Below, piece after piece: positions 3,001-36,406 of a stretch of DNA of 64,000 bases. The notes under the pieces were generated by a model. The model ran no database searches and was not told where the DNA came from. It saw only the letters and a program-made list of their open reading frames with translations. Location: positions 477,214,001 to 477,278,000 of the forward strand of contig CM097882.1 in the NCBI GenBank assembly GCA_044892505.1, written 5' to 3'. How positions within the stretch are numbered: position 1 is the stretch's first letter; each line of letters starts with the position of its first letter. The position numbers were made by a program, and so were the translations under genes. This DNA is from Schmidtea nova (Eukaryota).

Positions 3001-3801
3001 GGTTCAAACAAGAAGAATATTTCCGTTTGGTAAATTGCACCTAATTTTGTTCCAAATAAATTTAAAAATGCAAAAAATTTTTTAAATTAAATTCAAGAAT
3101 TAAATAATTTCAAAAGACCGAAATCTGATGGTTATAAATTATAAGCAAAAGTTTTACTAAATCAATTTCGTTACTAAGGCCTCAGCAAAATTTTAAAATC
3201 AAAATATTGAAATTTTAATAAATATTTTATTATAAATTTAAAGCAAGATAGACAATAGGATTTGAATATAAATAAAGTTTACATAAATTTTAAATATAAA
3301 AAACATAACAATTTAAGGAAATTGCGATAATGATAAAAATTTGGGTCTAAATAAGAGCAATTTGTATATTCCCAAATATATACATTTTCTGAAGGAATAA
3401 TTGATCACCTATTTGAGTTGCGATAATATTTTCGAATGCATGTTGCGAATAGAGTAAAAGCGCTCGAATAAATTAATTGATTAATAAATAAATCACAGTT
3501 TGGCGAAAATACTCAAATAAAAATCTCGTAATAAACCTATACAGTGATAGAACAGATAAATTAAGGGGGACAAAAATGGGCAAGAAACCTTCTATCGGTA
3601 GCCCTTGGACCCAGGAGATATTCGGTCAATCATAGTTTCGTATTGACGACGCTCACTGATTGCGAATACCCACCCACTTGTTACAGTACCAACGTTACAT
3701 AGTGACGGGTAACAAGGTGGTAATTTCAATGTTTTATGTGTTGAGTTGTTGATGAGAGCCATAGAAACGTCAAGGTCATATTGACGGTCAACAACCCACC
3801 A
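1..3801 (+). repeat. 5' LTR (truncated by window start)
   Basis: Matches 20188-23987; in spot checks the only difference was a C8 vs C7 run (~1889 vs ~22086). Ends in CA and is followed by the PBS. Confidence 0.9.
3619..3801 (+). other. Structured U5-terminal element (three stem-loops), also at the 3' LTR end (~23805-23987) and in diverged copies
   Basis: Pairings: TATTCG..CAATCA/TGATTG-CGAATA with inner TCGT/ACGA hairpin; CCACTTGTTAC/GTAACAAGGTGG; GTTGTTGA/TCAACAAC enclosing CGTCAA/TTGACG. Confidence 0.6.
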
Positions 3802-3811
3802 TATAAAAATT

Positions 3812-3829
3812 TGGGGGCTCAGCCGGGAT
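3812..3829 (+). promoter_or_regulatory. Primer-binding site complementary to tRNA-Pro 3' end
   Basis: TGGGGGCTCAGCCGGGAT vs canonical Pro PBS TGGGGGCTCGTCCGGGAT (16/18), 10 nt after the LTR end; absent after the 3' LTR. Confidence 0.88.
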
Positions 3830-4105
3830 TATCTCGATTTAGCTAGTTTGTTTTGTGTGAAGCGAAAATCAATGGAAATGACTTTACGTGGAAGTTTGTT
3901 AATGTTTTTGCGTTGGAAAGATAAAAGTATTTTAAAGAAAAACGAGATTTGGTGAAAGTTTTATAAAAATCGATAATCATTTGAGTATTTTCGACGAAAA
4001 TGGAAAAAATTTATGCTTGATTATTAATATTATTTATATTACTATTATTATTTTTACGACAATAGTTATTTTATACCATTATAAGTATTATTATTAGGAT
4101 TATAA

Positions 4106-4259
4106 NNNNNNNNNNNNNNNNNNNNNNNNNNNNNNNNNNNNNNNNNNNNNNNNNNNNNNNNNNNNNNNNNNNNNNNNNNNNNNNNNNNNNNNNNNNNNNN
4201 NNNNNNNNNNNNNNNNNNNNNNNNNNNNNNNNNNNNNNNNNNNNNNNNNNNNNNNNNNN
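4106..4259. other. Assembly gap (N run)
   Basis: 154 N bases. Confidence 0.99.
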
Positions 4260-4919
4260 CATTGAGTAGAGAATTATAAGTAGAGAATATTATTTTAAGT
4301 ACCATTTTGAATTAAGATTTGGAAAAATTTGGAAAATAAAAAGTTCCGAATCAAAATCACCGCGAAAGCGAATAAAAGTTAAGCCGAAAAAACGATCTTT
4401 AAGCCCCACGAGCAGCCAATGATTGGAATTGAGAGCGAATAATAACAACAGAGCGTAGAATAAGTGTCTTTAATACAAATAAACGTCAAACATAGCATAG
4501 GATAAAAAGTCGAGCCGGAATGGGTCAAAAGTCTAAGAAAATCACGGGTAAAATAGTCAAAAATACCAAATCGCGACAAATGAACCCCGCGAACAACCAA
4601 TAATCGTAAAATTGTTCAAATAACGTCCATGGAGCGTAGAAAGTGAGTGTGCAACACCGGCAAGTGGAAAATACCTCGAAAGATAGAATATGACACCGGA
4701 ATCCGCAAAAAGTGTAGAAAATCGCCGCTAAGAAATTTAAAAGATTGAAGAAATTACGGAATTTTGACCCAAGAAAGCAGTAACACCAAGTATTAATGAT
4801 AGTGTAGATATCAGAATTATTATTATCATCATTTTAGTTGTGGAAACAGTAATTTGGTCAAATAATATAAAAATAAAACTGATTTATTATATTTTTATTA
4901 TAATTATTACGTAATAATA

Positions 4920-5160
4920 TATAAGAAATATATTGGGTGAATTGCCGTATAACGCGCATTATTATTATTATCATTATAATTATTATTATTACTATTATTA
5001 TTATCAATTTAGTTATTATTACTAGTAGTACTATAAGCATCTTAGTATAATTATTATTATTATTATTATTATTATCATTATTATTATTAATATTATTATT
5101 ATTACTGTTATTATCATGAGTGTTACTGTGGATGTCATTATTATTACTAACGATATCGAT
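4920..5160. repeat. (ATT)n-rich microsatellite/low complexity
   Basis: Repeated attattatt tracts; similar tract at ~9040-9090. Confidence 0.8.
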
Positions 5161-5924
5161 GTTATATTATTTGATTGAGAATGACTGAGGTATGACCCCT
5201 GTAATTTTATTTTTGTTGGCAGAGAGGGACATGGAAAGTATCGGGTCTAAAAGAAATAACGGCGAAAATGGAGCAATGCGTGAATTGTTTGTTTTAATTA
5301 ATATAATAATACAAGTAGAGAATGAATGATATAATCTAATAAGTTTGAAGTTTGAATGTTGCGAAAAATTAGATTGTTGAAGTCAAAATGATGCATGGTG
5401 ATATTGGAATGTTGATCGCGACTCAATTCGGGAATCGAAATCGGGTATAATTCAAAAATCTGATGAAATCATAAAATAATATCTAGTAACGACTTAAAAA
5501 AAACAAATATAATGATATAGAACCAAACAAGAAAACGTGAGACTTAACGTAAATACGAAAATCGTGAGATGCCCAAAATTAGGAACCTAGTAAAAGGAGA
5601 TGCTATATGACCATACGATACGGGATAGAGTTCACGCGAATCACTTAGGGAATAAATATTCGAATATACAAAATTGCTTTTAGTAAACAAAAAATTACCA
5701 AAAAATTGCGAATACTGTAAATAAAAAATATAATTATCTTAAAATTGATAAAAAGTGTAAAAATCATGAAAAAATTGTGTAAATAAATGTTCAATTATTT
5801 TTTATTTAGAAAATATTAGTATATAAAAAAAAATATAAAAAATCATAAAAATTATGTACATAATGGCTGATTATTTTAATATTTTATTCGAAAAATATCG
5901 AATATGGACGAATGGAGAAAATTA

Positions 5925-6570
5925 TAAAAATATAAAAATATAAAAAATATAAAAATACAAAAATATATGTATAAAAATGGCTGAATATTCTGTTAGTTAA
6001 AAATATAAAAATATAAAAATATAAAAATACAAAAATATATGTATAAAAATGGCTGAATATTCTGTTAGTTAAAAATATAAAAATATAAAAATACAAAAAT
6101 ATATGTATAAAAATGGCTGAATATTCTGTTAGTTAAAAATATAAAAATATAAAAATATAAAAATACAAAAATATATGTATAAAAATGGCTGAATATTCTG
6201 TTAGTTAAAAATATAAAAATATAAAAATATAAAAATACAAAAATATATGTATAAAAATGGCTGAATATTCTGTTAGTTAAAAATATAAAAATATAAAAAT
6301 ATAAAAATACAAAAATATATGTATAAAAATGGCTGAATATTCTGTTAGTTAAAAATATAAAAATATAAAAATATAAAAATACAAAAATATATGTATAAAA
6401 ATGGCTGAATATTCTGTTAGTTAAAAATATAAAAATATAAAAATATAAAAATACAAAAATATATGTATAAAAATGGCTGAATATTCTGTTAGTTAAAAAT
6501 ATAAAAATATAAAAATATAAAAATACAAAAATATATGTATAAAAATGGCTGAATATTCTGTTAGTAGTAG
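5925..6570. repeat. Tandem array, 9 units of ~72 bp (one 64 bp) inside the element leader
   Basis: Nine copies of ATGTATAAAAATGGCTGAATATTCTGTTAG separated by a variable number of 8-bp AAAAATAT modules. Confidence 0.95.
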
Positions 6571-6713
6571 TTTTGAAAAAATACAAAATATATAAAAAAT
6601 TATAAAAATTCGTGTACATAGCTGTTGAAGTTTTTATTATTTATTTTTCGTTCAAATCATAATGAATGGTTAATTCAAAAAGTTATAAACACCAGTCATC
6701 ATGAATATTTTAG

Positions 6714-7196
6714 ATGGAATCGATGGAGCATATTTTACTACGAATCGAGTTGTTTTTCGATTTTAAAAATGACCCATTGCAGGTGTTGAGCGAGAAACTC
6801 GAACGAGTAAATGGAATAAAAGATGAATTATTGTTGAATCCTAGACCACAACCCGAGAACCTAATAGTGATTGCAGGAATTGTGGGAACAACAAACGATA
6901 TTTCGTTGGAAATGATTTATGAATTACAACGATTGCGACTGAATAATCCGAATTTTAATCTAAAAATACAAGAATGGATTGGTAAAATCGATAAAATCAT
7001 GGACAAGCTAGAGAGATCGATAAATCAACAGAGCGATTCGTTCGAAAGATGTTATATTTGTCGACAAAAAGAAGCGAACATTTTATTCATGCCATGTGGG
7101 CATTTGTGCTATTGCCAGCCGTGCTCTAGAAAAATAAAGAGATGCGTAATCTGCAAACAGACAATTGATGACAAAATCATCGTATTTTGTTCGTAA
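6714..7196 (+). CDS. RING-finger (C3HC4, IAP/Mind-bomb-type) putative E3 ubiquitin ligase, 160 aa, no BIR domain
   Basis: C-terminal CYIC-x-ANILFMPCGHLCYCQPCSRKIKRCVICKQTI; acceptor TTTTAG directly before the ATG. Confidence 0.85.
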   Translation: MESMEHILLRIELFFDFKNDPLQVLSEKLERVNGIKDELLLNPRPQPENLIVIAGIVGTTNDISLEMIYELQRLRLNNPNFNLKIQEWIGKIDKIMDKLERSINQQSDSFERCYICRQKEANILFMPCGHLCYCQPCSRKIKRCVICKQTIDDKIIVFCS

Positions 7197-8240
7197 AGAA
7201 TGTCGTTCGAAATAAACGTTTTGGTCGTATTTAACTTCGTCGATCATCCAGTACTCCAAACCGTTAAAAAAAAAAAAAAAAAAAATTAAATAAACACAGA
7301 ACACTAGGTAATTAATAACTGAGAATCGTGAAAAAACATAACAAGTAACGGCTAATGCCGAAAAATCAAACATTAGGAAAATGGGAATTTGTGACAAAGT
7401 TACTTTTCTTTTCTTTTTGAATTTTCTTTATTATTATTATAAATCCTCCTCATAATTATTATTTTGAACCGAATTTCATTACTATAATCTTCCTTATTAC
7501 CATTATTATATTGATTATCATTATTATACTGATCATTATATATATAAATATGTATGTATTAGGACGAGCCATAAGTAGCGTTATAGAAGTTGATTTTATA
7601 AGGGAATCTTCCGAAATACAGTGAGAAATGAGTGTCTGAGTAGAAACGAGAAAATAGTCCACAAATTCATAACTGAGCTATCAAAAGATAGTACGCCAAG
7701 TTTTAACAGAGCTATCAAAAGATAGTACGTCAATATTTTTGTTGTTAAAAATTAGCAGACAACAAACGGGGAAAAACTTGATCACCTTGAGGAAAGAGAG
7801 TAGAATAGGATATCCATCGCATATGTTGGCGAAATTTCGTTTGTGACTGATCATCACAAATTGCGAAACGAGTTAACGCGATTATTTTACGATTTTGAAT
7901 TAGGTGAAAGGGCTTAACCCGTAATGTTCGTCTTATACACCAGTTTGCCAAGGCATGATTGGTACACTGAGGTAGAGGACAGTAACATTAATAAAGAGAA
8001 AGATGCTGCAGATTTTAGAAAGTCGAAAGAGTAAAAAGTGAATTTCGATGATTATAGTAGATGATAGTATAATAAGAAAAGATTCTACCATGGTAGTTAG
8101 GGAATTGATTCGTAATTGAGAAGTAGTAGAACAATTTGAGAAAAACAGTCAGCAACAGCGAATTTAGTTAAAAATTTGAGAATAGGGAAACGAGTGATTG
8201 AATAGCATAAAGAGAATAATCGAAGACGGCCGAGAAAAAA

Positions 8241-8788
8241 TTGAGAAACTTTGAGAGTTCATGTATGTGAGAGACTTTGAGAGTCCAGATAATTGAGAAA
8301 CTTTGAGAGTTCATGTATGTGAGAGACTTTGAGAGTCCAGATAATTGAGAAACTTTGAGAGTTCATGTATGTGAGAGACTTTGAGAGTCCAGATAATTGA
8401 GAAACTTTGAGAGTTCATGTATGTGAGAGACTTTGAGAGTCCAGATAATTGAGAGACTTTGAGAGTCCAGATAATTGAGAGACTTTGAGAGTCCAGATAA
8501 TTGAGAGACTTTGAGAGTCCAGATAATTGAGAGACTTTGAGAGTCCAGGTAATTTAGAGACTTTGAGAGTCCAGATAATTGAGCGCTCTGGGAGAGACTT
8601 TGAGAGTCCAGATAATTGAGAGACTTTGAGAGTCCAGATGATTGAGAAACTTTGAGAGTTCATGTATGAGAGACTTTGAGAGTCCAGATAATTGAGAAAC
8701 TTTGAGAGTTCATGTATGAGAGACTTTGAGAGTCCAGATAATTGAGAAACTTTGAGAGTTCATGTATGTGAGAGACTTTGAGAGTCCA
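8241..8788. repeat. Tandem array of ~21 x 26-bp monomers partly organised as 52-bp dimers
   Basis: Alternating TGAGAAACTTTGAGAGTTCATGTATG / TGAGAGACTTTGAGAGTCCAGATAAT units. Confidence 0.95.
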
Positions 8789-9551
8789 ATGTTTGTGGAT
8801 ATTGTTGAGAAATTTAGGAAAAACGTTTGAGAAATAGAATTAAATAAAACTGCAGTTATAATTTTGTTATGATAGAGAGAAACGTTGAACGCGAATACTT
8901 AAGGTGTAGTAAGATAAACCGTTAATAAGAGCAGATAAAAGACATCGAGAAATACTTAGGAAATAAAATAATGGCCATGAATAGATAACGAACAAGACAT
9001 TTTTCCTCGAATGCCGAGATGAGTATGATCATACTGTTATTATAGTATTAGTAATGTTATTATTATTGTTACTATTATTATTATTATTATCAGGGTATAG
9101 ATAATTGATACGACCATATAGATAATTATTACGAGATATAGATAATTTAAAATCTGAGCTCAGAGTAAAAGGGGGGTAAATGGCGTCGATGAAGAAGCGA
9201 TATTTTTATTTAGATTGTCCAACAGATCAAAGCCAAGCCAAGAGATAGTCAAATCAATCAGTTATTGAAGAGGTATATATAGAAGAAAAGAAGAAAAAGA
9301 AGTCTAATTGAAAAGGAAAGAAGTAAAAGAAAATAAATCAAAGAAGATCCAATTGAAGATAAAAGAAAGATCAGCAATCGATATTAAACACAAATTGACA
9401 ATATTACCAAACCAACCAAGTTCGTAAAGTCGAAAGATAAAGAGTCAAATCTATTAAAAACGACGAAAGGAAATTAAAAAGAAATAAAGCTGATAAATAA
9501 AGAAGTAAAATCCACAATATTAGAAAGTTTGTAGCCGATTTTCAGAAAGAA

Positions 9552-12500
9552 ATGGAGGAGAATCAGAAAGTTACCAGTGCAAACTCAGAAGATAATTTAT
9601 TAAAAGAAGAGCAGAAAATAACCAGTTCAAATGTAGAAGATAATTTACAGGAAGAAGAAAAAGAAGTAATAACAATGAAAATGCAACTACAACAGAATAT
9701 CGAAGGAAAAGTAAATGAAATGATAACCGAATTATCAGACGTTGAAATTGAAAGAAAGGGAAATGTATATGAATTTTCAGTAAAAGATATGGAGGGAGAA
9801 GAAAAGAAGAAGTTTGTGGAGAAATATAACCGAAAAAGAAGAGAAAGAAGAAGCAATGATGATACATGTAGCATGGACGAGAAATGGGATGAATCTACGA
9901 CAATCAAATTAGAAGAAGTGGCACAAAGATTGTTAACAATTACCATGGAAGAAATGACGAAAATGGATCAAAAATCAGAAGAAAAAATAAAATCAGCAAA
10001 ACTCGAAAGATCAAGACAAACGGAAACGTCAAAGACCGAACGATTAATCAGTAACCTAATCAAGAATGCAGGAAATCAATGCGAAACAACAACTGAATTA
10101 CTAAAATGGGTTATAAAAAATAGTGCAATTATATCAAACATGAGATTGATAGTGAAAGAAATCGAGAAATGCAGACGTTTATGCCCTTGGTATTCAACAC
10201 AATTTGATGACATCATGAGAAAATGGAAACAACTAGAACAAACAAACGATGATCCACAAATGTGCAGATTGAAAATTCAATTTCCGAATCTAGAAGAAAT
10301 AAAGATGAATGTATCATTAACAACAAAGATCAAAGAGATAAAAGAGAGATTACCATTTAACTTACCATTTCACTTGAAATATGATGGAGAATCGCTGGAT
10401 GATGATATAGAAATCGGTGTAACCCCGATACAAATCAAAACAAGTAATAAATTAACTGTTGATAAAATTGCAGGAAGCGAGTTGACCAGAAAAGCGAGAG
10501 GTGAAGATAATCCCGAAATAACGATAATTGCCATGATGAAAACTCCAGCTGGACCAACACTTACAATTAACATCGAAGTTAATGGTGTAAAAGTAGACGC
10601 GATGATAGATACTGGCGCAAATATATCGGCAATAGATATCGATATGATACCAGAAATGTTACGGCTATGCATCGAGAAAACATCAGTAGACGTAATAACA
10701 TGCAGCAAAGAATCTGTCAATATCGTTGGAAAAATATGGACGGACATCGAATACAGAAAAGTAAAAATATCAACTTATTTGACAGTCATAAAACAACTGG
10801 GTGCCTCATGCATTATTGGAACAGACTTAATACCAAAACTGTTAAAAGGATCTGTAATCGATTTGAATACGATGAAGTTAAAACACCTAATTGAAGAGAA
10901 TGGCACAAGAGAAACAATGATAGAACAATCAAATCCAGAAACAACCAGAAAAGGACAAGTATATATGTTTCGAGAGAATAAAAATGACGATTGGCTACAT
11001 CGTATATTAACTGCGAGCAGAAAAGTAAATCAGCCGACAACAATATCTGAACAACCTAAGATAGTTGACGATGTAAAAATGGAGCACCGCAAAAAGATGG
11101 AATTGATCATTGAGATTACCAAAGAAATTATGCCAGAATGGTCACAAAGTAAAAATCTATTTGAAATATTGGGAGGAGTAAGCTTAATGGTTGAGGAATA
11201 TGCCAAAGGAAATGAAACGACAGAAGCGATGAATACCATAAAAGAAAGATTACCAATATTATTTACAATTGCCAGTTTTAAAGATGAGATACCGTTATAT
11301 CACGCAATAAAAAGTGGGAATGAACAGAGAATGTTTGAAATCATAAAACTCATGGAAAAGTGCAAGCAACATACCAACACGAAAAACTGGAAAGATCAAA
11401 CACCCTTGATGGTAGCAATTGAAAAAGGAGGATCCAAGAAACTCATAGCAGAACTGATGAGAACCGGATCAAGTTTTAAAGAAAGAGATGATAAAAATGA
11501 AACGGTGTTATCTTATGCAGTGCAAGCAAATAACCATCAAATAATCAAATATATTATGTCAAATGCTACAGAAGAAGATATTGAAGTGCTCAGTTCAGAT
11601 CCAAATCCATTAGTAAATGCAGTGAACAAAGATGCCGACGAAACAACAGCAAAAATGATTAAATGGTTACATCCAGTTACGCACGAAGGAGTGATAAATG
11701 TCAATGACAGATTTGAAGACGGTGAAAATATGATAATGAAAAGAGCCATGAAAAGAAAATGGAAAATGTGTAAAACGATTAAAGCATTGCTGCAAAGACC
11801 TGATTTCAGGTTTACGAACAACAAAAAAGAAAAAGAAAGAATTGGAGCTAAAAGACATGAATTATATCAGCAAGTTATCATATGGAAAGAAAATATAAAA
11901 GAAAGCAGAATTCACCGAAGCTGGAACAACGCCAAAGATGAAATAACCAAGAGAGCAAATATAAAAGCCGAAGCAGACGAAATAGCTAAAAGATATGAAG
12001 AAATAATAAAATTAATAAATGTCGAGGACGACATTTTAAACAGAACCGAGGGTGGTTCTAATGATCACAATGAGTCTGACGATGAAGGTGAAGAGAATAA
12101 CAACAACAAAACAAAGAAAGATGACAATGAGAGTATCAACAGAAACAATGACAAAGACGAGAAAGATGATGGAAAAAGCAATAACGACGAAATTGGGAAC
12201 AAAAGTGATGAACCCAAGCAAGAAACTTCAAACTATGAAAAACGAACAGCATGTCTACATAAAACTCGAATAAAAGACATAATATTACTGATATTGATGC
12301 TGTCAGCATTGAAAGGAACGGAAGCTGATGACAAGAGAAAACCAGTACAAGTATTAACACAAGGAGCAGATAATGAAGAAGCATGTTGGAGTAGCATCAA
12401 CTTGCAAAGTAAAGGAGATAACCCAGTCAAATGTCAACGAGCAGAAGGAGGAGAAATCCGAATAAATGGATTAAAACGAGAAACAAAATATAAAATCTGT

Positions 12501-12662
12501 GTTTACAAAAAGAAAGCAGCACAAGGATTGTTTAGAACACTCGTACGCCAGATAGTAGCACATAATGGTTCAAAAGTCACCCAAGAAGACATAAAAGTCA
12601 TATTAACCGACGAACTAGATGAGAACATCAGAGTGTCGTCGAAACGCAAGCTGCCGGAATAA
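9552..12662 (+). CDS. 1036-aa polyprotein: helical N-terminus, ubiquitin-like domain, retropepsin-type aspartic protease, ~5 ankyrin repeats, acidic linker, internal signal-like segment, FN3-like domain
   Basis: Protease VNGVKVDAMIDTGANISAI...IIGTDL (DTG at 10608). Ankyrin TPLMVAI/TVLSYAV/NPLVNAV (aa ~578-752). Ubl-like FHLKYDGESLDDD (aa ~238-303). IILLILMLSALKGTEA followed by INGLKRETKYKICVY. Confidence 0.85.
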   Translation: MEENQKVTSANSEDNLLKEEQKITSSNVEDNLQEEEKEVITMKMQLQQNIEGKVNEMITELSDVEIERKGNVYEFSVKDMEGEEKKKFVEKYNRKRRERRSNDDTCSMDEKWDESTTIKLEEVAQRLLTITMEEMTKMDQKSEEKIKSAKLERSRQTETSKTERLISNLIKNAGNQCETTTELLKWVIKNSAIISNMRLIVKEIEKCRRLCPWYSTQFDDIMRKWKQLEQTNDDPQMCRLKIQFPNLEEIKMNVSLTTKIKEIKERLPFNLPFHLKYDGESLDDDIEIGVTPIQIKTSNKLTVDKIAGSELTRKARGEDNPEITIIAMMKTPAGPTLTINIEVNGVKVDAMIDTGANISAIDIDMIPEMLRLCIEKTSVDVITCSKESVNIVGKIWTDIEYRKVKISTYLTVIKQLGASCIIGTDLIPKLLKGSVIDLNTMKLKHLIEENGTRETMIEQSNPETTRKGQVYMFRENKNDDWLHRILTASRKVNQPTTISEQPKIVDDVKMEHRKKMELIIEITKEIMPEWSQSKNLFEILGGVSLMVEEYAKGNETTEAMNTIKERLPILFTIASFKDEIPLYHAIKSGNEQRMFEIIKLMEKCKQHTNTKNWKDQTPLMVAIEKGGSKKLIAELMRTGSSFKERDDKNETVLSYAVQANNHQIIKYIMSNATEEDIEVLSSDPNPLVNAVNKDADETTAKMIKWLHPVTHEGVINVNDRFEDGENMIMKRAMKRKWKMCKTIKALLQRPDFRFTNNKKEKERIGAKRHELYQQVIIWKENIKESRIHRSWNNAKDEITKRANIKAEADEIAKRYEEIIKLINVEDDILNRTEGGSNDHNESDDEGEENNNNKTKKDDNESINRNNDKDEKDDGKSNNDEIGNKSDEPKQETSNYEKRTACLHKTRIKDIILLILMLSALKGTEADDKRKPVQVLTQGADNEEACWSSINLQSKGDNPVKCQRAEGGEIRINGLKRETKYKICVYKKKAAQGLFRTLVRQIVAHNGSKVTQEDIKVILTDELDENIRVSSKRKLPE

Positions 12663-12856
12663 CAAGGAAAAGGATCTGTGTAAATATTGTATAAAAGTAT
12701 ATTGTAATAAAAGTAGTATGAAAATTGTGTAAATACTGTACAAATAATATGTTAACGAAAAAAATGGTTTAAAACGTAAAATTAATTGATGATGAAAAAA
12801 CAACAACTATACCCTGTCATAGAAATATTATTCCTTTCTAGAAGCTCTAATCAACA

Positions 12857-14305
12857 ATGAAAAAACTAGCCAGTATAATTGTCCTATGCTCCGTATTCAA
12901 CACCTTATCAAGAAACAATGCAGAAGAATACTTTTTCAGCACAACAACAGCTAATCAGATTGCCTATAAAACAATTGAAAAGAGACCTAAAAACTCCTAT
13001 GAAAACATTCAATTACATGTCCTATTGACAAGCTTATCCGGAACATTGCTATATTTAACAAACGACGATGGTAATCAATTAATTTTAACCCTCTATAATG
13101 AAATCAGTGAAAGAATGAAGATAGAATACAAAGAGCTTGATTATGTTGTAGAACTTTGCGAGTTATGCCAAGATCAAAGCACCAGCGAATGTGAATTGTA
13201 CAAATATCGATCAATCAAAGTAAATATCAAGATTGCAGATAAACTCGCTGTCAAATGTAACCAAGGCAAGGAAACATTCTTTGAGTATGGAGAAAAACAA
13301 ATTACTAAAACTGATTACCCAACGATAAAGGAAATTGACAAAACAACAACACTTATCTACGTCATGAACACACCTCAACATGACAAAGGATACCCCAATC
13401 CTGAACAATTACAAGGTTGTGTGTATAAAGTGGAATACAATAATAAAACGCTGAAAATGGAAAGGAGCAGTGAAGAGATAAAAAACGAATGTCGAAAAAT
13501 ATGTACAGACAATATCTGTAATGAAGGTAAATGTTATGAAACATTTTCCGAGAAACCTATCTGTAATTGTAAATTTACCCCAAAAAACGGTCGGTACTGT
13601 AACACCAGCAGCATTAGCCGGAAATACCGAAGAATCAACGCACAAAAGCAAACACTTTGGATAGATTATGTAAAGTTATTAATAAATAACAACTCGAAGG
13701 AGCTAATTTTTGAAATGGAGAACAAAGAATCCAGATTGTACATACGGAGAGAAAGAGCATCAATTACAGTCAAATATGAAAACAAGAAAGACTGGTATAT
13801 AGAAGGCTTTTTGGCCAACCAGGTTGATGAAGTCAAACTGATAATAATAGGCATGAAGTTCACGGAGAAAGGAATCCATTTCCATATTATCAATCAGAAA
13901 ACCGAAATCTCAAGAGAAATGCCTGTTTTAGAAAAGATGAATGAAATACCTTGGAAACTTATAACGATTGCAGATAGTGTAGAAATGATATATAAGATAC
14001 ACCATTCACGGTACGATTGGTGCAGTACTGACATGGACGAAATTAGGAATAATGACAGAACATGTGCGGAAATTGAAGTAGTTCCTCCAACGAACGAAGC
14101 GAGAAGCCTAACAATGAAAAAGTTACCAATGGAGACAAATTATAAGATCAGTCGTCAAACATTCGTCAGTACATTAGTAATAGAAATTATAATCCTAGTC
14201 ACCGGAACTATTGGAATTTTTGTCCTCGTATACAAGAGAGCAAAACGGAAACTCGAACAACGAGTAAATATGATTTTGGAACAAGTTCATATGACCCCAG
14301 TATAA
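12857..14305 (+). CDS. 482-aa type I membrane protein: signal peptide, LamG-like, EGF, second LamG-like, TM, tail ending MTPV (neurexin/Caspr-like layout)
   Basis: N-terminal hydrophobic MKKLASIIVLCSVF; LTSLSGTLLYL and LQGCVYKVEYN LamG-type motifs; EGF CTDNICNEGKCYETFSEKPICNCKFTPKNGRYC; TM TLVIEIIILVTGTIGIFVLVY followed by KRAKRK. Confidence 0.75.
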   Translation: MKKLASIIVLCSVFNTLSRNNAEEYFFSTTTANQIAYKTIEKRPKNSYENIQLHVLLTSLSGTLLYLTNDDGNQLILTLYNEISERMKIEYKELDYVVELCELCQDQSTSECELYKYRSIKVNIKIADKLAVKCNQGKETFFEYGEKQITKTDYPTIKEIDKTTTLIYVMNTPQHDKGYPNPEQLQGCVYKVEYNNKTLKMERSSEEIKNECRKICTDNICNEGKCYETFSEKPICNCKFTPKNGRYCNTSSISRKYRRINAQKQTLWIDYVKLLINNNSKELIFEMENKESRLYIRRERASITVKYENKKDWYIEGFLANQVDEVKLIIIGMKFTEKGIHFHIINQKTEISREMPVLEKMNEIPWKLITIADSVEMIYKIHHSRYDWCSTDMDEIRNNDRTCAEIEVVPPTNEARSLTMKKLPMETNYKISRQTFVSTLVIEIIILVTGTIGIFVLVYKRAKRKLEQRVNMILEQVHMTPV

Positions 14306-14454
14306 ATAAAGAGGAACAGTGTATATAGTGTATAAAATTATATTGTATTATAAAAGTAGAATATATTTGTATAATAAAAATTTAAAAATCCAAAAAAATG
14401 AATACCTCAAAACTGGGAAAAACAAATGATAATATTGTGTAATTATTGACAGAA

Positions 14455-14904
14455 ATGAATTCGAACAACGAGAATCAAAGTTATCAAACATCAGTTCCAA
14501 CGTTCAATGAACCATCAAATCAAACTCAGTTTCCAGAAGATACCAATATACGAGAAAGAGAAAGGTCACTGCAAACCCCAGTAATCGAAAATGAAACGCA
14601 AAATCCAACAATTGACGATAGAAACCTGATATACCAAGTCGAAATTCCACTATTTGATGAAACCATGAACCCAATTCAAACGACATTCGTATTAAATCAA
14701 CAACCAACAAATAGCCAGACTCAATCAATATCAGCTCCGATGGTTTATCAGCAGACAATGACGCAAGAGTTATCATGGAAAACGCAATGTGAATTATTAA
14801 GCAGGATGTTGAATCAAGCCTATGCACAATGGAAAAATGAACAAGCTTTGTTAACAGAAAGTGTAAACAGAAATTTATTATATCTCCGTTATGCCGATCA
14901 ATAA
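14455..14904 (+). CDS. 149-aa Q/N/T/P-rich protein with C-terminal helix, unknown function
   Basis: Open frame; first ATG at 14455 lies 2 nt after a CAG acceptor (the track's TTG start at 14446 lies upstream of the acceptor). Confidence 0.7.
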   Translation: MNSNNENQSYQTSVPTFNEPSNQTQFPEDTNIRERERSLQTPVIENETQNPTIDDRNLIYQVEIPLFDETMNPIQTTFVLNQQPTNSQTQSISAPMVYQQTMTQELSWKTQCELLSRMLNQAYAQWKNEQALLTESVNRNLLYLRYADQ

Positions 14905-15038
14905 TCCAAATAAACAACTTTGTAAATAAAGTGTAAAAATTTTAATTTCAATCGATGTATACAAGTATTATTTAATAAGCATGAGCAACAAAAAATGTAT
15001 AAACAAAAGGAAATTACCCATGTTATTATTATTTCAGA

Positions 15039-16586
15039 ATGAATATACAACAATTGATAGACATCCTAGATCAGGAGATGGCAAAAAGACAAGAGCAATT
15101 AGATCAAATGAGAAGCTGTGAACAAAGAATGGAAGCCATCCAAGAGAACGTTAAAATGATTGAAAAACGAACCCAAGAGATCAACAAAATAAAAGAAGAA
15201 AACGAGGAACTGCGAAAGATAATAAACGACAAGGCGCATATCGAAGCTGAATTAGACAATTATAAACGAGAGTACCGAGAAATGGAGAGAAAACTCGAGC
15301 ACGAACAACGAAAGTCGGTACCGTTGAAAAATCAAGCGAGATTAAGAAAAGACGAGCTCGAAACCTATAAAAGAGATACCGAAACAAGGTATGACAACTC
15401 CATAAGATTCTATCAGCAGCAACTCGAAAGTGAAAGAAATAGATATGAAGCCATGAAAAAGAAATGGGAAAAGTGTCGAGATGAAGCATTTGCTTTGAGA
15501 GGACAACCTCAAAAGAAGCTTAAAGTCAGAACAAGAAACATTGAACCTGAAAGCGAACAAGAAAAGATCATTAGAAAAGTTAAAGCAGAGGCTAGGAAAT
15601 GGAAACAAGAACACCAAGATTTATTGGAAATGGCTCGACACAGGAAAATGCTACAGGAAGAATTACTAAGACGGAGAGACGTTCAAATCGAGGCTCTGAA
15701 AGAGGAATGTCATTGGTATGCAGACATACGTCATGAGGAAACGGAGAAACTCAGAAAAGAAATATTCCAGTTGAAAACGAGCGGACAGTTCAGAGTAAGA
15801 AGCATAAAGCATCAAATAAAGTGGCTAATAGAACAAGCCAGAACATGGAAAAAGACCTGGAAAAGAACTCGAGACGAACTACGAGAATTCCCAAAGAAGC
15901 TGATGTCAATAAATGAAGCAGAATTGTGGGAAAATGCAGAAAAGCAAGAGATAGAAAACAAAGAATTAAAACGACAAGTTCAATTAAAAACTGAATGGAA
16001 TCAAAGGAGAATGAAATTTACCAGGAATCAAGAAGCTCGTATCAAATATCTGGAATTTGAAAACAGGCAATATGATCAACAGAAAAATATGGACGATAGA
16101 AGTATTGAAGAATTGACAATCGAATTGACTATTGCAAACCGTGAAGTCAACGGATATCGAGGAACAAATACTCATAAAGATATTGTCATTCAACACCAGC
16201 GACGGCAGATAGAAGAAACAAAGGCCGAATGTGAGAAAGCGATCCAGCAATCGCAGTATGAGATTGAGATGGCAATCCAAAGTTTGGAAGAAAACCGCCA
16301 AAACTATGAAAGAGAGATTGAAAGGTTAAAATATATGGAAAATACGAGAGAGCTCGAGATAGAAAAGGAACAGCTGAGTGAAGAACTCGATTATATGACA
16401 TATTTGCTAGATGAAGAGATAGAAATCTCAAGAACCTTGCGAGAAAGAGTTCAGAGCCTACAAAATCAACCTCCAATCATTCTATGGCCACTATATCCAA
16501 CACCAATACAACCTGTACATTTGGAGCAAGAAAATCCTCAAATCGAAGATGAAGGGTTCGGAGAAATTGAAGAGACGTTTGTATAA
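15039..16586 (+). CDS. 515-aa long coiled-coil protein, Pro-rich C-terminus
   Basis: Long E/K/R/Q-rich heptad ORF; TTTCAG acceptor 1 nt before ATG. Confidence 0.8.
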   Translation: MNIQQLIDILDQEMAKRQEQLDQMRSCEQRMEAIQENVKMIEKRTQEINKIKEENEELRKIINDKAHIEAELDNYKREYREMERKLEHEQRKSVPLKNQARLRKDELETYKRDTETRYDNSIRFYQQQLESERNRYEAMKKKWEKCRDEAFALRGQPQKKLKVRTRNIEPESEQEKIIRKVKAEARKWKQEHQDLLEMARHRKMLQEELLRRRDVQIEALKEECHWYADIRHEETEKLRKEIFQLKTSGQFRVRSIKHQIKWLIEQARTWKKTWKRTRDELREFPKKLMSINEAELWENAEKQEIENKELKRQVQLKTEWNQRRMKFTRNQEARIKYLEFENRQYDQQKNMDDRSIEELTIELTIANREVNGYRGTNTHKDIVIQHQRRQIEETKAECEKAIQQSQYEIEMAIQSLEENRQNYEREIERLKYMENTRELEIEKEQLSEELDYMTYLLDEEIEISRTLRERVQSLQNQPPIILWPLYPTPIQPVHLEQENPQIEDEGFGEIEETFV

Positions 16587-16685
16587 ATAATAAAAGTGAA
16601 TGTAAAGTGTAAAAATAAATTGAAATGTAGTGTAAAAAGAAAACGTTGTAAACAAATGTAAAAAGAAAAAGTTGTAAAATATATC

Positions 16686-16716
<31 letters not shown>

Positions 16717-16868
16717 ATAAAAAGCAGAAAAAATAAAAAATCCAATAAAAATCAGAAAAAATGAAAAACAAATAAAAATTAGGTGATAAAAATGATAAAA
16801 ATGATAAAAACAAAAACAAAATTTAATAAAACTGTAGAAAAGAGTTATGAAAATTCAAATTATAGAGA

Positions 16869-17444
16869 ATGAGACTATTGAAGCAAAGATCAGAACCAGA
16901 ACAACAAACGATATCAAAAGAAAGATTCAAAAAACGGAAAAGAGCAACAGAACAATATTATCAAGACCAAATAGAGCAATTGAAGGAAGTAGTGAGCAAA
17001 GATAGAAAATATATCGCGCAAATGGAGCAAGAGTGCGAGACGATGGAAATAATCAAGCGCGAAAATTATCTATTTCGCCAACAAAATGGTCTTACCCAAA
17101 AATATTGCTACAGACAGAAGCAAGAGATTGACAGACTCAAAAGGGAAATAAGCAGTGAACAGAACACTGATAATAAAAGGAGGATTAAGATCGAGTCATT
17201 ACAACGATCATTGAAGAACAAACAGAAAAAGATTATAAAAAGAGAGAAACAGATAATAAAGTTGAAAAGTGAAATCATAGAAGCAAAATTCGATACGTTC
17301 AAAGCAAAGAAAGTTGTAGAAATTAAAACGGCAGAAAACTACGTCCTCAAAGAGAAAAGGCGAAAAGAAGCAGACGAGATTGCAAAAATGGGTAACTGGA
17401 AGCCAGAAAGTCCGTTAAAGCTAAATGAAGAGACGAAAGAATAA
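16869..17444 (+). CDS. 191-aa basic coiled-coil protein
   Basis: K/R/E/Q-rich ORF preceded by TATAG acceptor; AATAAA overlaps the stop. Confidence 0.75.
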   Translation: MRLLKQRSEPEQQTISKERFKKRKRATEQYYQDQIEQLKEVVSKDRKYIAQMEQECETMEIIKRENYLFRQQNGLTQKYCYRQKQEIDRLKREISSEQNTDNKRRIKIESLQRSLKNKQKKIIKREKQIIKLKSEIIEAKFDTFKAKKVVEIKTAENYVLKEKRRKEADEIAKMGNWKPESPLKLNEETKE

Positions 17445-17539
17445 AATATATCTAAACTCATGTAAATATCCCTGTAAAAATATCAAAGAGAAAATTTGAC
17501 AAATCATTAAACAAATTTGAATCTATAAATCTATAGAAA

Positions 17540-18364
17540 ATGAGCAATCTAATGAGGATCACAACAACCATCATGATATTTATGATTACAAACTGCCGAA
17601 GCGAAGAAGCATTGAGTCAATGTCAAGCAAGCCATCCATTTAGAAGATCCGATAGCATTTGTGCAAGCTATCAAGAAATGTGTATCACCAGAAATGAGGA
17701 GTGTCAACAGATCCAACTGCAATGTCAACAATGTCCAAAATCCAGAGAAGATTCAATCACTATTCTTAAACAGCTAAAAAACGAAACCCAACAATTAATC
17801 CAACTACAAATCTCCTTAACCCAAAGGAACAATCTTCAACTAAAGAAACAGCTCGAAAATCAATCATCTTTCAAACAGTTAACAACCGAACTAAAGAAAT
17901 TGAGCAAGTTAATAGAAAAATCTTTAAATAATAAAGATGAAGTTAATGAGGAACGATCAAGTTTTACAGAAGAGTTAAATCAAAAACTGAAAAGTCAACT
18001 TCATCAGACCGAGAGAATCATAAAACAATTGATATTACCCGAAAAGCAAAAGGAGATTATCCCTAAACAAGGATCAACCAACGAAGACGTCAGAGACCGA
18101 GAAGCAGCCATCACAGTCGTCCTACAAGGCATCAGTCTTTTCGCGGTCATAATGATCCTTAGCATTGTTGCATCAATCGGATTAGAAAAAATGAAATTAG
18201 AGAAAGCAAAAATCCAGTTGAATACAATCAAAAGAATCACCCATGAAGACAACAACCCGTCAGAAAATTTTCTAAGATCAATATTCGAAGATCCAGTTCC
18301 AGAACAGCCTAATCCTGAGACATCTACAACCTCGGTGCAGATGAATTACTTCTATAAACAATAA
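17540..18364 (+). CDS. 274-aa type I membrane protein: signal peptide, Cys-rich head, coiled-coil stalk, TM, tail
   Basis: MRITTTIMIFMITNC signal; six Cys in the head after the signal; Leu heptads; TM AITVVLQGISLFAVIMILSIVASIGL. Confidence 0.8.
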   Translation: MSNLMRITTTIMIFMITNCRSEEALSQCQASHPFRRSDSICASYQEMCITRNEECQQIQLQCQQCPKSREDSITILKQLKNETQQLIQLQISLTQRNNLQLKKQLENQSSFKQLTTELKKLSKLIEKSLNNKDEVNEERSSFTEELNQKLKSQLHQTERIIKQLILPEKQKEIIPKQGSTNEDVRDREAAITVVLQGISLFAVIMILSIVASIGLEKMKLEKAKIQLNTIKRITHEDNNPSENFLRSIFEDPVPEQPNPETSTTSVQMNYFYKQ

Positions 18365-18566
18365 TACGATTCTATTCCCTTTTGACAATTCATGTATTTT
18401 CTTCCATTCATTTAACCTATCTATCTATTTGTATTCTCATCTTTAACAATATTTCATCATCATTTAAATCATAACCCTGTGTAAAAATCGTAACACCCTT
18501 GTAAATAGCAAAAATTGTTTATCGTCATTATTCAATTTCTTTCTATTAGAAACACAAAAATCAACA

Positions 18567-19361
18567 ATGAAATCGTACCGAGAAGTTTTTCTAATCGCCA
18601 TGATCACAACAATTTATTGTCATCTCGAAGAAACCCAGAAATCAAGCCAATTAAACCCAAATCAACCAGATAATAAAGAACCATTTGAAATCTCTAACAA
18701 CAAACAACTATCCGAAAAGATTGAGCAAGCCAAAATCGAAATTCAAAATACCCTTTTCGATCAAAATGATGAAATTTCAGGTCTAAAAAGAATAGCAAGG
18801 ATAATATTAGCCGATTTAGCGATCAGAGATACATTCGAGGATATCTTTGATAATGATCGAGAAACCCGTGACGTAATAAAAAGTCTCACCAAAGAACTTA
18901 AAACGAATATAGGCAAGTTAATCGATCAGCTAACGATAAATTCATCAAGTCCGAAATGTCTGAAACAAATCCAGAAAATTCATCATAACCTGTCCCAGCA
19001 GATTTCCGAAGTAGGAAACCAAACGGCACAACAACTAAGAAAGGCTTATTTCGAAAGCCTGACATTTAAGAATAAAATCCACAATCACATAAACGAGATA
19101 TCGAAACCGGATAACAATCAAGGCAGAGACAAGTGCAGAGCACCCCTCCTATCATCCAAACGAATTCTCGATATCTGCCTGATCATCCTTAACTTTTTCC
19201 TAATAATCGGAATTTGTGGTATAATACGGTTAGGCTTGACCGCCACAAGAACGATGAACAACATGACCTCCAAACAATCCCGAAGAGAAGATGACAAGAA
19301 ACAGTTGATCGATACCGAGTCATTCAAACTATTCCAGTCGAAGATCCAACCAATTCAATAA
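18567..19361 (+). CDS. 264-aa type I membrane protein: signal peptide, helical ectodomain, TM, tail
   Basis: VFLIAMITTIYC signal; TM ILDICLIILNFFLIIGICGIIRLGL; size and topology parallel the preceding ORF. Confidence 0.8.
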   Translation: MKSYREVFLIAMITTIYCHLEETQKSSQLNPNQPDNKEPFEISNNKQLSEKIEQAKIEIQNTLFDQNDEISGLKRIARIILADLAIRDTFEDIFDNDRETRDVIKSLTKELKTNIGKLIDQLTINSSSPKCLKQIQKIHHNLSQQISEVGNQTAQQLRKAYFESLTFKNKIHNHINEISKPDNNQGRDKCRAPLLSSKRILDICLIILNFFLIIGICGIIRLGLTATRTMNNMTSKQSRREDDKKQLIDTESFKLFQSKIQPIQ

Positions 19362-20187
19362 TAAATTTGATAATTCAACAAACTTAATAAAACTTTTATC
19401 CGAGTCGTTGTAGACTCATATTGAACTTTGATTAGCCGCTGTAGGCACATATATTACATTTAATTTTGCTTGCGAGTCGATGCAGACTCATATTAATGTA
19501 TACGTATTAACTTTTTATTAATTTTTATCACTTTTTATTTTTTATTGTCGCGAACGGCATGATCACGACCAAGTAGCTCGTGTATAATGTACAACCTTTT
19601 GACCTTTGATTAGTCTTGGTTCTTAACCCCTCTGAGAAATTGCGGGACGCAATTTTTGCGGGCCCCCGAGTATTTTATGTTGGGCCAAAACCCAATTTGT
19701 TTTAATAAAACGATAACCCCATAGGTAGAGAACGCGCAAGATTCCATTTTTAACCTTAGCTTCCATTGAAAATCCAACAATTAAGTGGAAAACACCAAAA
19801 GGTGAAGATGAATCAAAACACAGCAACCGGTAGAATGCGCGCTAACTGCGAATTTATAAATATTTTCACTGAAATCTCGAGAAAAATTAAAAGCAGAATG
19901 TTTGGAAGCTAGAATAGGCAAAAAACCCATGGAAAGTGCCCATAAAGAACAGAATTTTGTCATAAAATCTTCAGTACAGAAAAATTAACAAAATTTTAGA
20001 AGAAAATTGTGAATTTATCACAAAATTTCACATTTAACAATAGAAAGAATTAATATGGATCGAATATCATAAATTAAATCAAATCGAACAAATTTCGATT
20101 CAAACATGAGAATTTTGAATTAAAATAAATTATTTATAGTTTATAAAAAATTATTATACAAAAATATGGAATTAATTTTCGGAAAAT

Positions 20188-23100
20188 CATTAGAATTAAT
20201 TTAGAAAAAATTAAGAGAAAATTCTAGAACAATTTGTTTTATTGCACTACCGGAGATAGAGAAAATTTGATGGTATATATACCGCCATCAAAATGGCAGA
20301 TTTCAGATTTTGTGGAAAAAATTTTTTTGTTTTGCTAGCTAAGAGAATTTGTGAGAAGTTTTCCGAAAATTTTTATTGCTAACCTAATTAAAGAGAATTT
20401 GTACCATTTGCCTCAGAAATTTAGAATTGAAGATATTGTGGAAAGGATTCAATTTATTGGAAAATCGGAATTGGTCAAAATTTAGTTCCCGGAGCACGAA
20501 CCTTTTTAGTAGAAAACAAAATTTCTTCCTGGAGTTTGAAATGTTAGGTTTATTTTATTTTTGTTTTATTTTAAACTGATTCGAGGGGTATGGGATCGTC
20601 GGTAATCATGCCTGTCGATCATCCCATTCCTCACGTTCGTATTATTTAAAAATGTATTATTTTTGTTATTTTATATAATGCAATTATTTTATTTTGATAT
20701 TATTAAATATTAAAAATTTATTTTATTCAGTTTGATTTTGAAAATATTTTTGTTTATTATACTCACAAGTTCCCAAAACACCTAAAATTACTATGAGAAT
20801 TGTCGAAATAAACTTATGAAATTAAATAATTTTTTTTATCTCCCATATCTTCTGACGATCCGTCCAGCCTTGGTTGTGCGGATCTGTTAGTAGCCTGGGT
20901 GGATCGTTGTCTGATTGGTAATCGGCCAGCCCATATTTCCACTTTAAGGTGAGGCTCATACATCCAAATTCTCGTCATCCCAACTGGGGAATCGTGGTTT
21001 GGCCAAGAGCAAGGTTTTGTTATACTAATGATTTTTATTATAATAGAGTATCATATTTTTATTATCTACATAAGCAATTTCGTAACACAACATAAAATCT
21101 TCTAATTCACGTCTTGAAATCTAAAATAGGAAATATTATTGATTAAAAAAAAAAAAAAAAAAAAAAAATCGACTCGTACTCACCTTCACCTTCGCACTCT
21201 CAACAACGATCATCTCATGAGAAAATGCAAGAAAAATGGATGCTAACGATGAAAAGAAAATTGTTCGAATTAATGCTCAAGTCTAGAATGATGCTCACGA
21301 AACGAAATGAATTGTGAAACAAGTATTGATTTAGTCTGAATTTAAGACTCATTATGGTCTAAATAAGTTTTTCCTGTGAATCTTGTTTTTCGAGAGCCTG
21401 AAATTCCTAAGTGAAGTGTCCCGAAAAATTCGCGTGCACTTTGATTGGGAAATTCATGCTCAACAAAACCGAAATTTACTTCACTTGATGTTAAAAATAT
21501 TCGTCGAAAAAGGTGTAACTTATTTTATTTTATTTTTTATTTTTATTTAGTATATAAATCTCTTTAGATTAAATGCATATTTAGATCTCGAAATTCATGG
21601 ATAAAATATTTTTATTATTATTTCATTTTGATCAAGAATAAAAATTTGCTTTTTATTATACTGCAAAAATTTTAAAATGAAAAAATTATAAACCAAAAAA
21701 TGTTCCTAATATTATTAATATAAAAAAGATCTTATCATTTCATAAAATTCCAGAGAATTTGCAAATCAAAAGTTATATTAAACCCCATAAAAATTATAGA
21801 TTGAAAGTTTATTGTTATAGTAAAAATTCTTATTATTTTATAAAAATCTGAATTTGAAATTTTATAGAAAATTTTTTGGTTAATATATATTCTAAAATAT
21901 AAAAGGTTAAAAACCTATCTTATAAAAAAATTAAAAATTTTATCATTAGTAAATTTTTCATGAAACTATAAATACAAAAAAAATTTCATAAAAAGCATTA
22001 TAAAAATTATTATTATTATTTTAATTTAAAATTATTATTATTATGTTAAAATTATTTTATATAGTTTATTTAAATTATAATATAACCCCCCCACGATATC
22101 TTAAAAATATTAATACATCACTCATTGCAAGAAATCACACCCTTTTCACTCAATAGCATCACCCATACTAATATACAAGCAACATACATATAAAATACAA
22201 TATACACACATACACCGTATCGTTCAATAACATTCAACAATCACATGCATACAAGCAAACCATACAGAAAATCTACACCGTTAGGTTAGTTAGCATCATA
22301 TATCCATAGCTCATTCAGGCACTCGCTCAATCACATCCACATCGTTTATTTCATCCAACCGACCAATGAACACACCAACACATGCATTTATAACAATAGG
22401 AAGTCCACCACCGAACTATAAAAGAAAAAAAAACATAAACGTGATTCACCACAATAGGTATTTCCCACAAATCTATAACAAAATATAGCAGCCTCATTCA
22501 CCTTCAGATCATCACCTTAGAAATTACTTTCATTCATCTGTGAACATACCTCGCTGACAATATAACTTCCAATACCACTACCCAACAGTTGACAATGATT
22601 TATATATACCCCACTTCATATTTTAAAAAATTTTATAATAATAAAAAGACATTCAAGACAAAAAATTTATTGATAATAAACATCATTCACAACAGTTCCA
22701 GAAAACAGTCTGGTAGGGATTTCCCATAAGGAAGTTGGTTCCGTTGAGGAGTAAAACAACATCCAATTTGGGTACGATTTCTCGAAAATATCCAATCGTA
22801 CTATACGTCTGGCAGATATGAGAACGAAACAAAAAAATTAATTCCACAGAGCAACTGCCGCTTGCGACGATTGATAGATTTTATTTTTGTGGTTCCTCAT
22901 CGGAAAGCTGCTGGAGAATTTTTATTTAAGCCCTCGAATTTAAAGGGAAAAGATATTGGTCTATCATAGACTTGGCATTGAACGACGAACGTGGTGAATC
23001 TAGTGGCCTCTGAATCAAGTGATAATAAAGTAAAAATATATTGATAAATCTAAATTACCATTTTCGACGATGATAAATTTTCCAATTGAGTAGAATTTCA

Positions 23101-23987
23101 TAATAGGAATTTGAGAGAAATTAAATAAATAAATGATAATTCAAATTGTTATCATTTACAATTGAGGGGAAATAAATTTTTCTTCTGGTTCAAACAAGAA
23201 GAATATTTCCGTTTGGTAAATTGCACCTAATTTTGTTCCAAATAAATTTAAAAATGCAAAAAATTTTTTAAATTAAATTCAAGAATTAAATAATTTCAAA
23301 AGACCGAAATCTGATGGTTATAAATTATAAGCAAAAGTTTTACTAAATCAATTTCGTTACTAAGGCCTCAGCAAAATTTTAAAATCAAAATATTGAAATT
23401 TTAATAAATATTTTATTATAAATTTAAAGCAAGATAGACAATAGGATTTGAATATAAATAAAGTTTACATAAATTTTAAATATAAAAAACATAACAATTT
23501 AAGGAAATTGCGATAATGATAAAAATTTGGGTCTAAATAAGAGCAATTTGTATATTCCCAAATATATACATTTTCTGAAGGAATAATTGATCACCTATTT
23601 GAGTTGCGATAATATTTTCGAATGCATGTTGCGAATAGAGTAAAAGCGCTCGAATAAATTAATTGATTAATAAATAAATCACAGTTTGGCGAAAATACTC
23701 AAATAAAAATCTCGTAATAAACCTATACAGTGATAGAACAGATAAATTAAGGGGGACAAAAATGGGCAAGAAACCTTCTATCGGTAGCCCTTGGACCCAG
23801 GAGATATTCGGTCAATCATAGTTTCGTATTGACGACGCTCACTGATTGCGAATACCCACCCACTTGTTACAGTACCAACGTTACATAGTGACGGGTAACA
23901 AGGTGGTAATTTCAATGTTTTATGTGTTGAGTTGTTGATGAGAGCCATAGAAACGTCAAGGTCATATTGACGGTCAACAACCCACCA
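20188..23987 (+). repeat. 3' LTR (portion verifiable against the 5' copy). True start lies between 19362 and 20188; candidate TGTTGGG at 19678 would give ~4.3 kb
   Basis: Direct repeat of 1-3801. TGTTGGG is a 6/7 inverted match to the terminal CCCACCA. The start cannot be fixed because the 5' LTR start is outside the window. Confidence 0.88.
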
Positions 23988-30248: not shown

Positions 30249-30530
30249 ATTTGCCCGTCATCTAGCTTTTTGACTGGTTCAGTACCTCATGATCATAAAC
30301 TTCATCCATTTCACACTTTCTGTAAAGATAAAGTTAATTATTCTATTAATTGTGATGATATTATGATAACTGGACGTAATCTGAAAGAAGAATATAAATT
30401 TTGCAAAAAGAAATTTCACATTTCAAATGAAGAAATAAAAAGAATTACTTTTAATGCTGCTAAATCTTCCTTTCTAGAGCCACAAGAAAAATCCTGTCTT
30501 ATAGATCATTTAGAAACTGCTTTTAAATAA
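30249..30530 (+). CDS. ADA: Adenosine deaminase, terminal coding exon (upstream exons not found in window)
   Basis: TTTTAG acceptor then ICPSSSFLTGSVPHDHKLHPF...NYSINCDDIMIT...FNAAKSSFL, matching the ADA1 C-terminus (ICP-SS-LTG, NYSLNTDD, NAAKSSFL). Confidence 0.85.
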   Translation: MCPSSSFLTGSVPHDHKLHPFHTFCKDKVNYSINCDDIMITGRNLKEEYKFCKKKFHISNEEIKRITFNAAKSSFLEPQEKSCLIDHLETAFK

Positions 30531-36348: not shown

Positions 36349-36406
36349 TGAGTTATTGATGATGAGCCATAGTAACGTCAAGGTCATATTGATGGTCAAC
36401 AACCCA
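36349..36406 (+). repeat. Third copy of the LTR-terminal motif
   Basis: GAGTTATTGATGATGAGCCATAGTAACGTCAAGGTCATATTGATGGTCAACAACCCA vs LTR 3744-3801. Confidence 0.8.

Follow-up and report, generated by a model that had tools for sequence, protein, structure and literature searches.

A neurexin-like membrane protein gene as a probable optional cassette of a giant LTR retroelement in Schmidtea nova

Introduction

An open reading frame (ORF) of Schmidtea nova that reads like an adhesion receptor while lying between two long terminal repeats (LTRs) raises the question of what it is and what it does there. The ORF occupies positions 12857–14305 of the plus strand in a 64,000-nt stretch of contig CM097882.1 (positions 477,214,001–477,278,000; hereafter the window, whose own numbering is used throughout). 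A first-pass annotation had proposed a neurexin- or Caspr-type LamG-EGF-LamG protein with a transmembrane segment (TM), carried as intronless retroelement cargo and serving as an envelope substitute or to remodel cell junctions. Gene capture by LTR elements and the unusual cargo of Burro elements are already known (PMC6431247, available part). Giant planarian LTR elements are known for cargo related to apoptosis and ubiquitin, and for one of these cargo genes a contribution to regeneration is reported (accessible sections of PMC13465017). No report of neurexin or LamG cargo in such elements was found in the literature surveyed; some primary papers and supplements lie outside that survey and might mention it.

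Features of the neurexin-like protein

The ORF stays open through 482 codons without the need for an intron, and the chance of an equally long open frame at this composition is approximately 2e-17. Its intronless state stands out because a host RING gene in the same window has a 242-nt GT-AG intron, across which the frame stays open; the proposal of an intronless ORF inside a retroelement was confirmed. The predicted product is a type I membrane protein of 482 aa with 15 cysteines. A signal-peptide-like N-terminus (12857–12922, approximately residues 1–22), recognised by hydropathy, is followed by a first LNS/LamG domain of about 190 aa (12923–13492) with a closing C188–C212 pair and two family-specific cysteines, C104 and C134. 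An EGF-like domain with six cysteines (13496–13606, C216–C248) separates it from a second, cysteine-free LNS-like domain of about 125 aa (13640–14014), the weakest-supported part. A C389–C403 pair (14021–14065) encloses 13 residues, 4 of them acidic, and precedes a single TM helix centred near residue 440 (KD19 2.75) with a 24-residue tail ending in T-x-V (14162–14302). The signal peptide, six-cysteine EGF, single TM, basic SRKYRR sequence and MTPV end listed in the first-pass annotation are all present.

SRKYRR (residues 254–259) does not fit R-x-K/R-R, the three RxxR sequences in the protein are not beyond chance (1.1 expected per protein), and RxxR is missing from all three relatives that continue past the EGF domain; the suggested furin cleavage was therefore abandoned. 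At the C-terminus, T-x-V has a chance of approximately 0.45% by composition and [ST]x[VIL] of 2.5%. None of the five relatives described below reaches the C-terminus or covers the region of the C389–C403 pair.

Protein identity and homology

A search of 1.84 billion representative sequences yielded five relatives (P0001–P0005; 54, 31, 39, 35, and 33% identity), all of them partial and none extending to the TM, which could be host genes; no canonical neurexin was among the homologues at E ≤ 0.001. The ORF, whole or in parts, gave no LamG or EGF match in Pfam and no sequence match in the PDB, and the second LNS-like domain matched nothing in Pfam. When six aligned family members were compared with Pfam, EGF was recovered in three and Laminin_G_2 in one, all weakly. 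A profile of the six sequences matched neurexin-1alpha with E 2e-6, most strongly where LNS5 meets EGF3, and a three-sequence profile did so with E 7e-7, the score deriving mostly from the end of the LNS domain and the EGF; ten cysteines were invariant in the three-sequence alignment.

Structure-related searches pointed the same way. LamG/EGF proteins made up all 10 best family matches in the ESM Atlas (top score 0.95), with a Caspr4-like cluster second, and residues 255–482 scored 0.91 with beta-neurexins, a value from a tool whose accuracy on protein parts is unmeasured. Both AlphaFold models were poor (pLDDT 35.5 from the single sequence, and 40.9). With the pLDDT-41 model, Foldseek ranked 3ASI (LNS5-EGF3-LNS6) first (E 8.9e-4) and alpha-neurexins at ranks 1–4, but TM-scores were low (0.13–0.16; 0.15 for 3ASI). 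In VIA-align, 3ASI was tied at Z 5.8 (rmsd 16.8) in a list dominated by TM-helix matches. The first and second LNS-like parts did not match one another. Word-index homologue searches, covering proteins up to 844 aa, returned 0/4804, 0/5, and 1/5456 candidates; pattern searches gave 37, 576, and 296 hits, in none of which a related locus could be confirmed, and phage records contained none.

The LamG identity proposed in the first-pass annotation is thus supported indirectly, by the homologue profiles, the ESM Atlas and Foldseek, but not by Pfam or PDB matches of the ORF alone. Taken together, this converging if individually weak evidence makes the LNS-EGF-LNS-TM architecture well supported, least so for the second LNS. 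With the profile match and the LTR context, the central proposal of a neurexin/Caspr-type protein as intronless retroelement cargo held, and membership of the neurexin family together with cargo status is very probable.

Comparison with known neurexins makes the distance plain. Alpha-neurexins contain six LNS and three EGF domains and beta-neurexins one LNS, and the neurexin stalk has a Cys-loop in which two cysteines flank acidic residues (PMC8024894, in the part available). The C389–C403 pair may be this Cys-loop or a shortened LamG disulfide. Alpha-Neurexin-1, the best profile and Foldseek match, has the same order of LNS-EGF-LNS, Cys pair, TM, and short tail in the 3ASI region, stalk, and membrane segment. 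The ORF differs in having two LNS-like domains and one EGF, which is neither the alpha nor the beta layout, in an identity of approximately 13% in the structural alignment, in a second LNS of only about 125 aa, and in its extra family-specific cysteines. In the profile alignment, its Gln74 takes the place of the Asp of neurexin LNS2 and LNS5, which binds calcium. Neurexin C-termini are class II PDZ ends, whereas the 24-residue tail of the ORF has a class I-type end.

Neurexin IV carries a LamG-EGF-LamG unit (LEL2) immediately before the TM, and in Drosophila the Contactin-binding unit is LEL1, not LEL2 (PMC3195077, accessible text). The terminal LamG-EGF-LamG before the TM is common to Caspr/Neurexin IV and the ORF at the level of architecture, and because Neurexin IV ends in this same module, the donor may have been either a neurexin or a Caspr/Neurexin IV gene. 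In contrast to Caspr/Neurexin IV, the ORF has neither discoidin domain nor LEL1, for which 482 aa leave no room and Pfam gave no match, and its C-terminal half scores best with beta-neurexins.

The surrounding retroelement

The left LTR (1–3801, plus strand) begins beyond the window and ends at a position where loose contig ends accumulate (225 records in run X1 and 222 in X2). The right LTR was placed at 20188–23987 (plus strand), its true start being further left, somewhere in 19362–20187. The two copies both end in CA and are a single indel apart across 3801 nt, which suggests a recent insertion of this cassette-bearing copy, with the caveat that assembly can homogenise repeats. The element measures at least 23,987 nt and its LTRs at least 3.8 kb. 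Ten nucleotides past the LTR end lies a primer-binding-site-like 18-mer (3812–3829, plus strand), presumably of the tRNA-Pro type. No tRNA genes or Rfam families were found in the 64-kb window. No polypurine tract was found directly before the right LTR; a polypurine-tract-like run occurs at 9165–9177, inside the element and upstream of ORF2. The terminal 230–250 nt of the LTR also stand alone (3554–3801, 28651–28903, and 36344–36406), many contigs begin at 3573 and stop at 3801 with far higher depth there, and this stretch is perhaps a separate short element. Elsewhere in the window, 27204–28903 resembles an older, related LTR, 48831–49712 holds an integrase fragment from another, unrelated LTR element, 37026–37760 contains exons of a host RING/Sina-zinc-finger gene, and 30249–30530 an adenosine deaminase exon.

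Between the LTRs lie eight ORFs, all on the plus strand: a RING protein, a SUMO-like/protease/ankyrin protein, the neurexin-like ORF, and five orphans. ORF1 (6714–7196, 160 aa) has a C-terminal IAP-type RING (zf-C3HC4_3 in Pfam, E 7e-14; cIAP RING, E 2e-10). ORF2 (9552–12662, 1036 aa) combines a weak SUMO-like match (PF11976, E 0.025, below cut-off), an aspartic protease, and ankyrin repeats, with the protease-to-ankyrin junction bridged gaplessly by an X3 contig; neither a CCHC knuckle nor YxDD was found in it. In its last part, at approximately 12280–12330, ORF2 also has a short hydrophobic stretch that resembles an internal signal peptide; the segment after it contains cysteines and matches nothing in Pfam. 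ORF4 (14455–14904, 149 aa) matches no family, ORF5 (15039–16586, 515 aa) is coiled-coil-like, and ORF6 (16869–17444, 191 aa) is basic and coiled-coil-like. The C-terminus of ORF5, E-T-F-V, is a better class I PDZ-type terminus than that of the neurexin-like ORF, T-x-V ending two of the eight ORFs. ORF7 (17540–18364, 274 aa) and ORF8 (18567–19361, 264 aa) are orphans that each have a signal-like N-terminus and one TM; they did not match each other, and no family was found for either. The non-coding internal region holds tandem arrays, of approximately 72-nt units at 5920–6610 and of 26/52-nt units at 8240–8790; a 184-aa minus-strand ORF at 6065–6619 was rejected as a gene and attributed to the tandem repeats.

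The element shares with Burro/GYPSM1, the giant gypsy-like elements of planarians, its giant size and long LTRs as well as SUMO-like (weak), protease, ankyrin, coiled-coil, and IAP-type RING features (PMC6431247 and PMC13465017, as far as accessible). Unlike Burro, it yielded no match to gag, reverse transcriptase (RT), RNase H, integrase, env, BIR (in ORF1 or elsewhere in the element), or BCL2, a 154-N gap at 4106–4259 being without readable sequence, and its cargo is arranged as separate ORFs with their own acceptors rather than as a single polyprotein. The Burro motif list in the available part of PMC6431247 contains no neurexin-like cargo. LARD-type non-autonomous elements are likewise LTR-bounded cargo without transposition enzymes that is mobilised in trans, with contents rarely exceeding 10 kb according to the same sections of PMC6431247, whereas the present element has eight ORFs, and its internal region exceeds 15 kb.

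Splice acceptors and the arrangement of ORFs

Each of the eight element ORFs (6714–19361) has a YAG 0–17 nt upstream of its ATG, compared to a fraction of 0.18–0.40 of background ATGs, the 17-nt window having been set post hoc, after inspection of the data. The context of these acceptors is pyrimidine-rich (p 5e-5). The six spacers from ORF2 onward measure 95–282 nt and so stay below 300 nt, the limit applied to flatworm operons. TGTA occurs 28 times in the spacers at 12663–18566 against 11.8 ± 2.8 expected, a count equalled in none of 1000 dinucleotide shuffles. Several of these copies read TGTAHATA, which we take to be a Pumilio element. AATAAA was seen, as a raw count, within 46 nt past the stop in six of eight ORFs. 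Flatworms use spliced-leader (SL) trans-splicing and have operon candidates with spacers of up to 300 nt, and their trans-splice acceptors often double as cis-splicing acceptors (PMC12582326, available part). The acceptor before each ORF points to a putative operon-like layout, in which each ORF could obtain its own mRNA either by cis-splicing from a leader or by SL trans-splicing onto the acceptor before its ATG.

Presence and absence of the cassette

Contig sets from four of the five listed sequencing runs, three from one study (X1–X3) and one from another (X5), were compared over positions 3000–22000. In two of the four (X3 and X5, thus in both studies), contigs join 12670 directly to 14312 and skip the whole ORF, which defines an optional cassette of 1641 nt (12671–14311, plus strand) consisting of spacer A and the neurexin-like ORF. 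In X2, loose ends at 14312 read like the end of ORF2. The depth of the joined, cassette-less contig in X3 was 108.1 vs. 15.3 for the ORF contig (approximately 12%), depth not being equal to copy number. The median over 17 further internal bins served as reference, and depth in the bin inside the ORF amounted to 0.035 of it in X1, 0.064 in X2, and 0.131 in X3, so that all three agree in the direction of a reduction within it. The majority of element copies appear to be without the cassette.

The two spacers that flank the ORF may offer a route for its loss or exchange. Spacer A (12663–12856, plus strand) is TGTA-rich and has a pyrimidine tract and an acceptor-like AG at 12840–12841; spacer B (14306–14454, plus strand) is identical with the start of spacer A in 60 of 79 columns. 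Among 15 pairs this was the sole strongly related one (z 5.9; next pair 3.0). Loss or exchange of the cassette by recombination fits these data, because the joint sits where the likeness between the spacers begins. Between the cassette-less X5 contig and the window, divergence is 9.6% immediately before the joint (12536–12670) and 0.5% after it; this one contig hints that the cassette-plus and cassette-minus forms are both old and have long coexisted. The divergence at 12536–12670 looks as if the cassette moves together with a diverged ORF2 end.

Alternative explanations

The ORF could be a neutral or decaying passenger that was captured or recombined in, hitchhikes with the element, and is lost through recombination of its flanking spacers. 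Four of the six listed contig pieces over the ORF are gapped (4, 9, 17, and 31), so that some copies are possibly decayed; the diverged pieces, at 82–88% identity, comprise one gapless and four gapped. The apparent minority status of the cassette form, the distance from every canonical neurexin, and the shortness of the second LNS-like part would also fit a passenger. The 482 codons are nevertheless open, and two pieces are gapless, namely a 1185-nt contig that differs at 9 positions and a 319-nt piece that differs at 55. Moreover, cysteines are invariant across relatives of 31–54% identity, signal, TM, and acceptor are all intact, and the contrast in divergence around the joint suggests long coexistence, albeit from one contig. 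Intact and decayed relatives of the ORF may thus both occur. The 40 variants listed (937 more exist) include 22 in ORFs, evenly divided between synonymous and non-synonymous (11 each), which are too few for a selection test; a single one, synonymous, falls in the neurexin-like ORF. On balance, neutral or decaying carriage is unlikely, and the cassette is probably maintained by selection. Selection could also act at the level of the host if the protein helped stem or epithelial cells to adhere or survive, as cargo comparable to the Burro1 IAP. The Burro1 B-IAP is a precedent, taken second-hand from the accessible part of PMC13465017, and the present element itself encodes an IAP-type RING. The cassette, however, resides in a recently inserted multi-copy element and not at a fixed single locus, and we consider a host-level benefit decidedly unlikely.

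Substitution for an envelope, as the first-pass annotation had suggested, would require the protein to be displayed on helper-made particles and to attach them to target cells. Its type I topology would suit this role, two further ORFs in the array encode a signal and a TM, and a proposal exists that Burro elements are proviruses that include an env region (PMC6431247, in the part available). The case is weakened by the adhesive nature of the fold, the lack of conservation at the basic cleavage site, the absence of any gag or env match in the element, and the abundance of cassette-less copies. LNS and EGF domains are, to our knowledge, not fusion folds, and the viral fold library returned nothing credible, just long high-rmsd matches to a poor input model. 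With no gag, RT, or fusion protein found in the element and the cassette apparently absent from most copies, the envelope role was not borne out, and we regard it as very improbable. Because many element copies are without the gene, it is more likely a passenger acting on host cells than an envelope substitute.

Proposed mechanism and significance

The reading that we prefer, with a probability of roughly 0.55, is that of an ancient capture from the neurexin family which became an optional accessory cassette and encodes a putative surface mimic or decoy. The element would be a non-autonomous, Burro-like giant LTR retroelement whose single-gene cassettes form an array and whose copying depends on a helper acting in trans. 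The captured piece would be the membrane-proximal module (LNS-EGF-LNS, stalk, and TM), acquired long ago and strongly diverged since, and recombination between spacers A and B would remove or exchange it; the neurexin-like gene would be an accessory dispensable for transposition. The protein may arrive at the surface of element-expressing cells and there, as a mimic or decoy of host neurexin/Caspr, bind the partners of these receptors without their full ectodomain, which could alter cell contacts or survival. This decoy mechanism is put forward tentatively and is less likely than not. A more elaborate version, in which an operon-like array of exchangeable cassettes supplies each cistron with its own acceptor, possibly for SL trans-splicing by the host, and the long-polymorphic cassette encodes a functional neurexin mimic that alters contacts or junctions to the benefit of element or host, is unlikely to be right in every part.

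New in this work are the 1641-nt presence/absence cassette with its related flanking spacers and contig joints from two studies, and the splice-acceptor-like YAG ahead of every element ORF. A surface cargo of the neurexin family would extend the reach of giant LTR elements from cell survival to adhesion. The natural plus and minus forms of the cassette constitute a built-in comparison for the effect of an accessory gene on a retroelement, and the layout of one acceptor per ORF provides a testable route from one LTR transcript to eight expressed genes.
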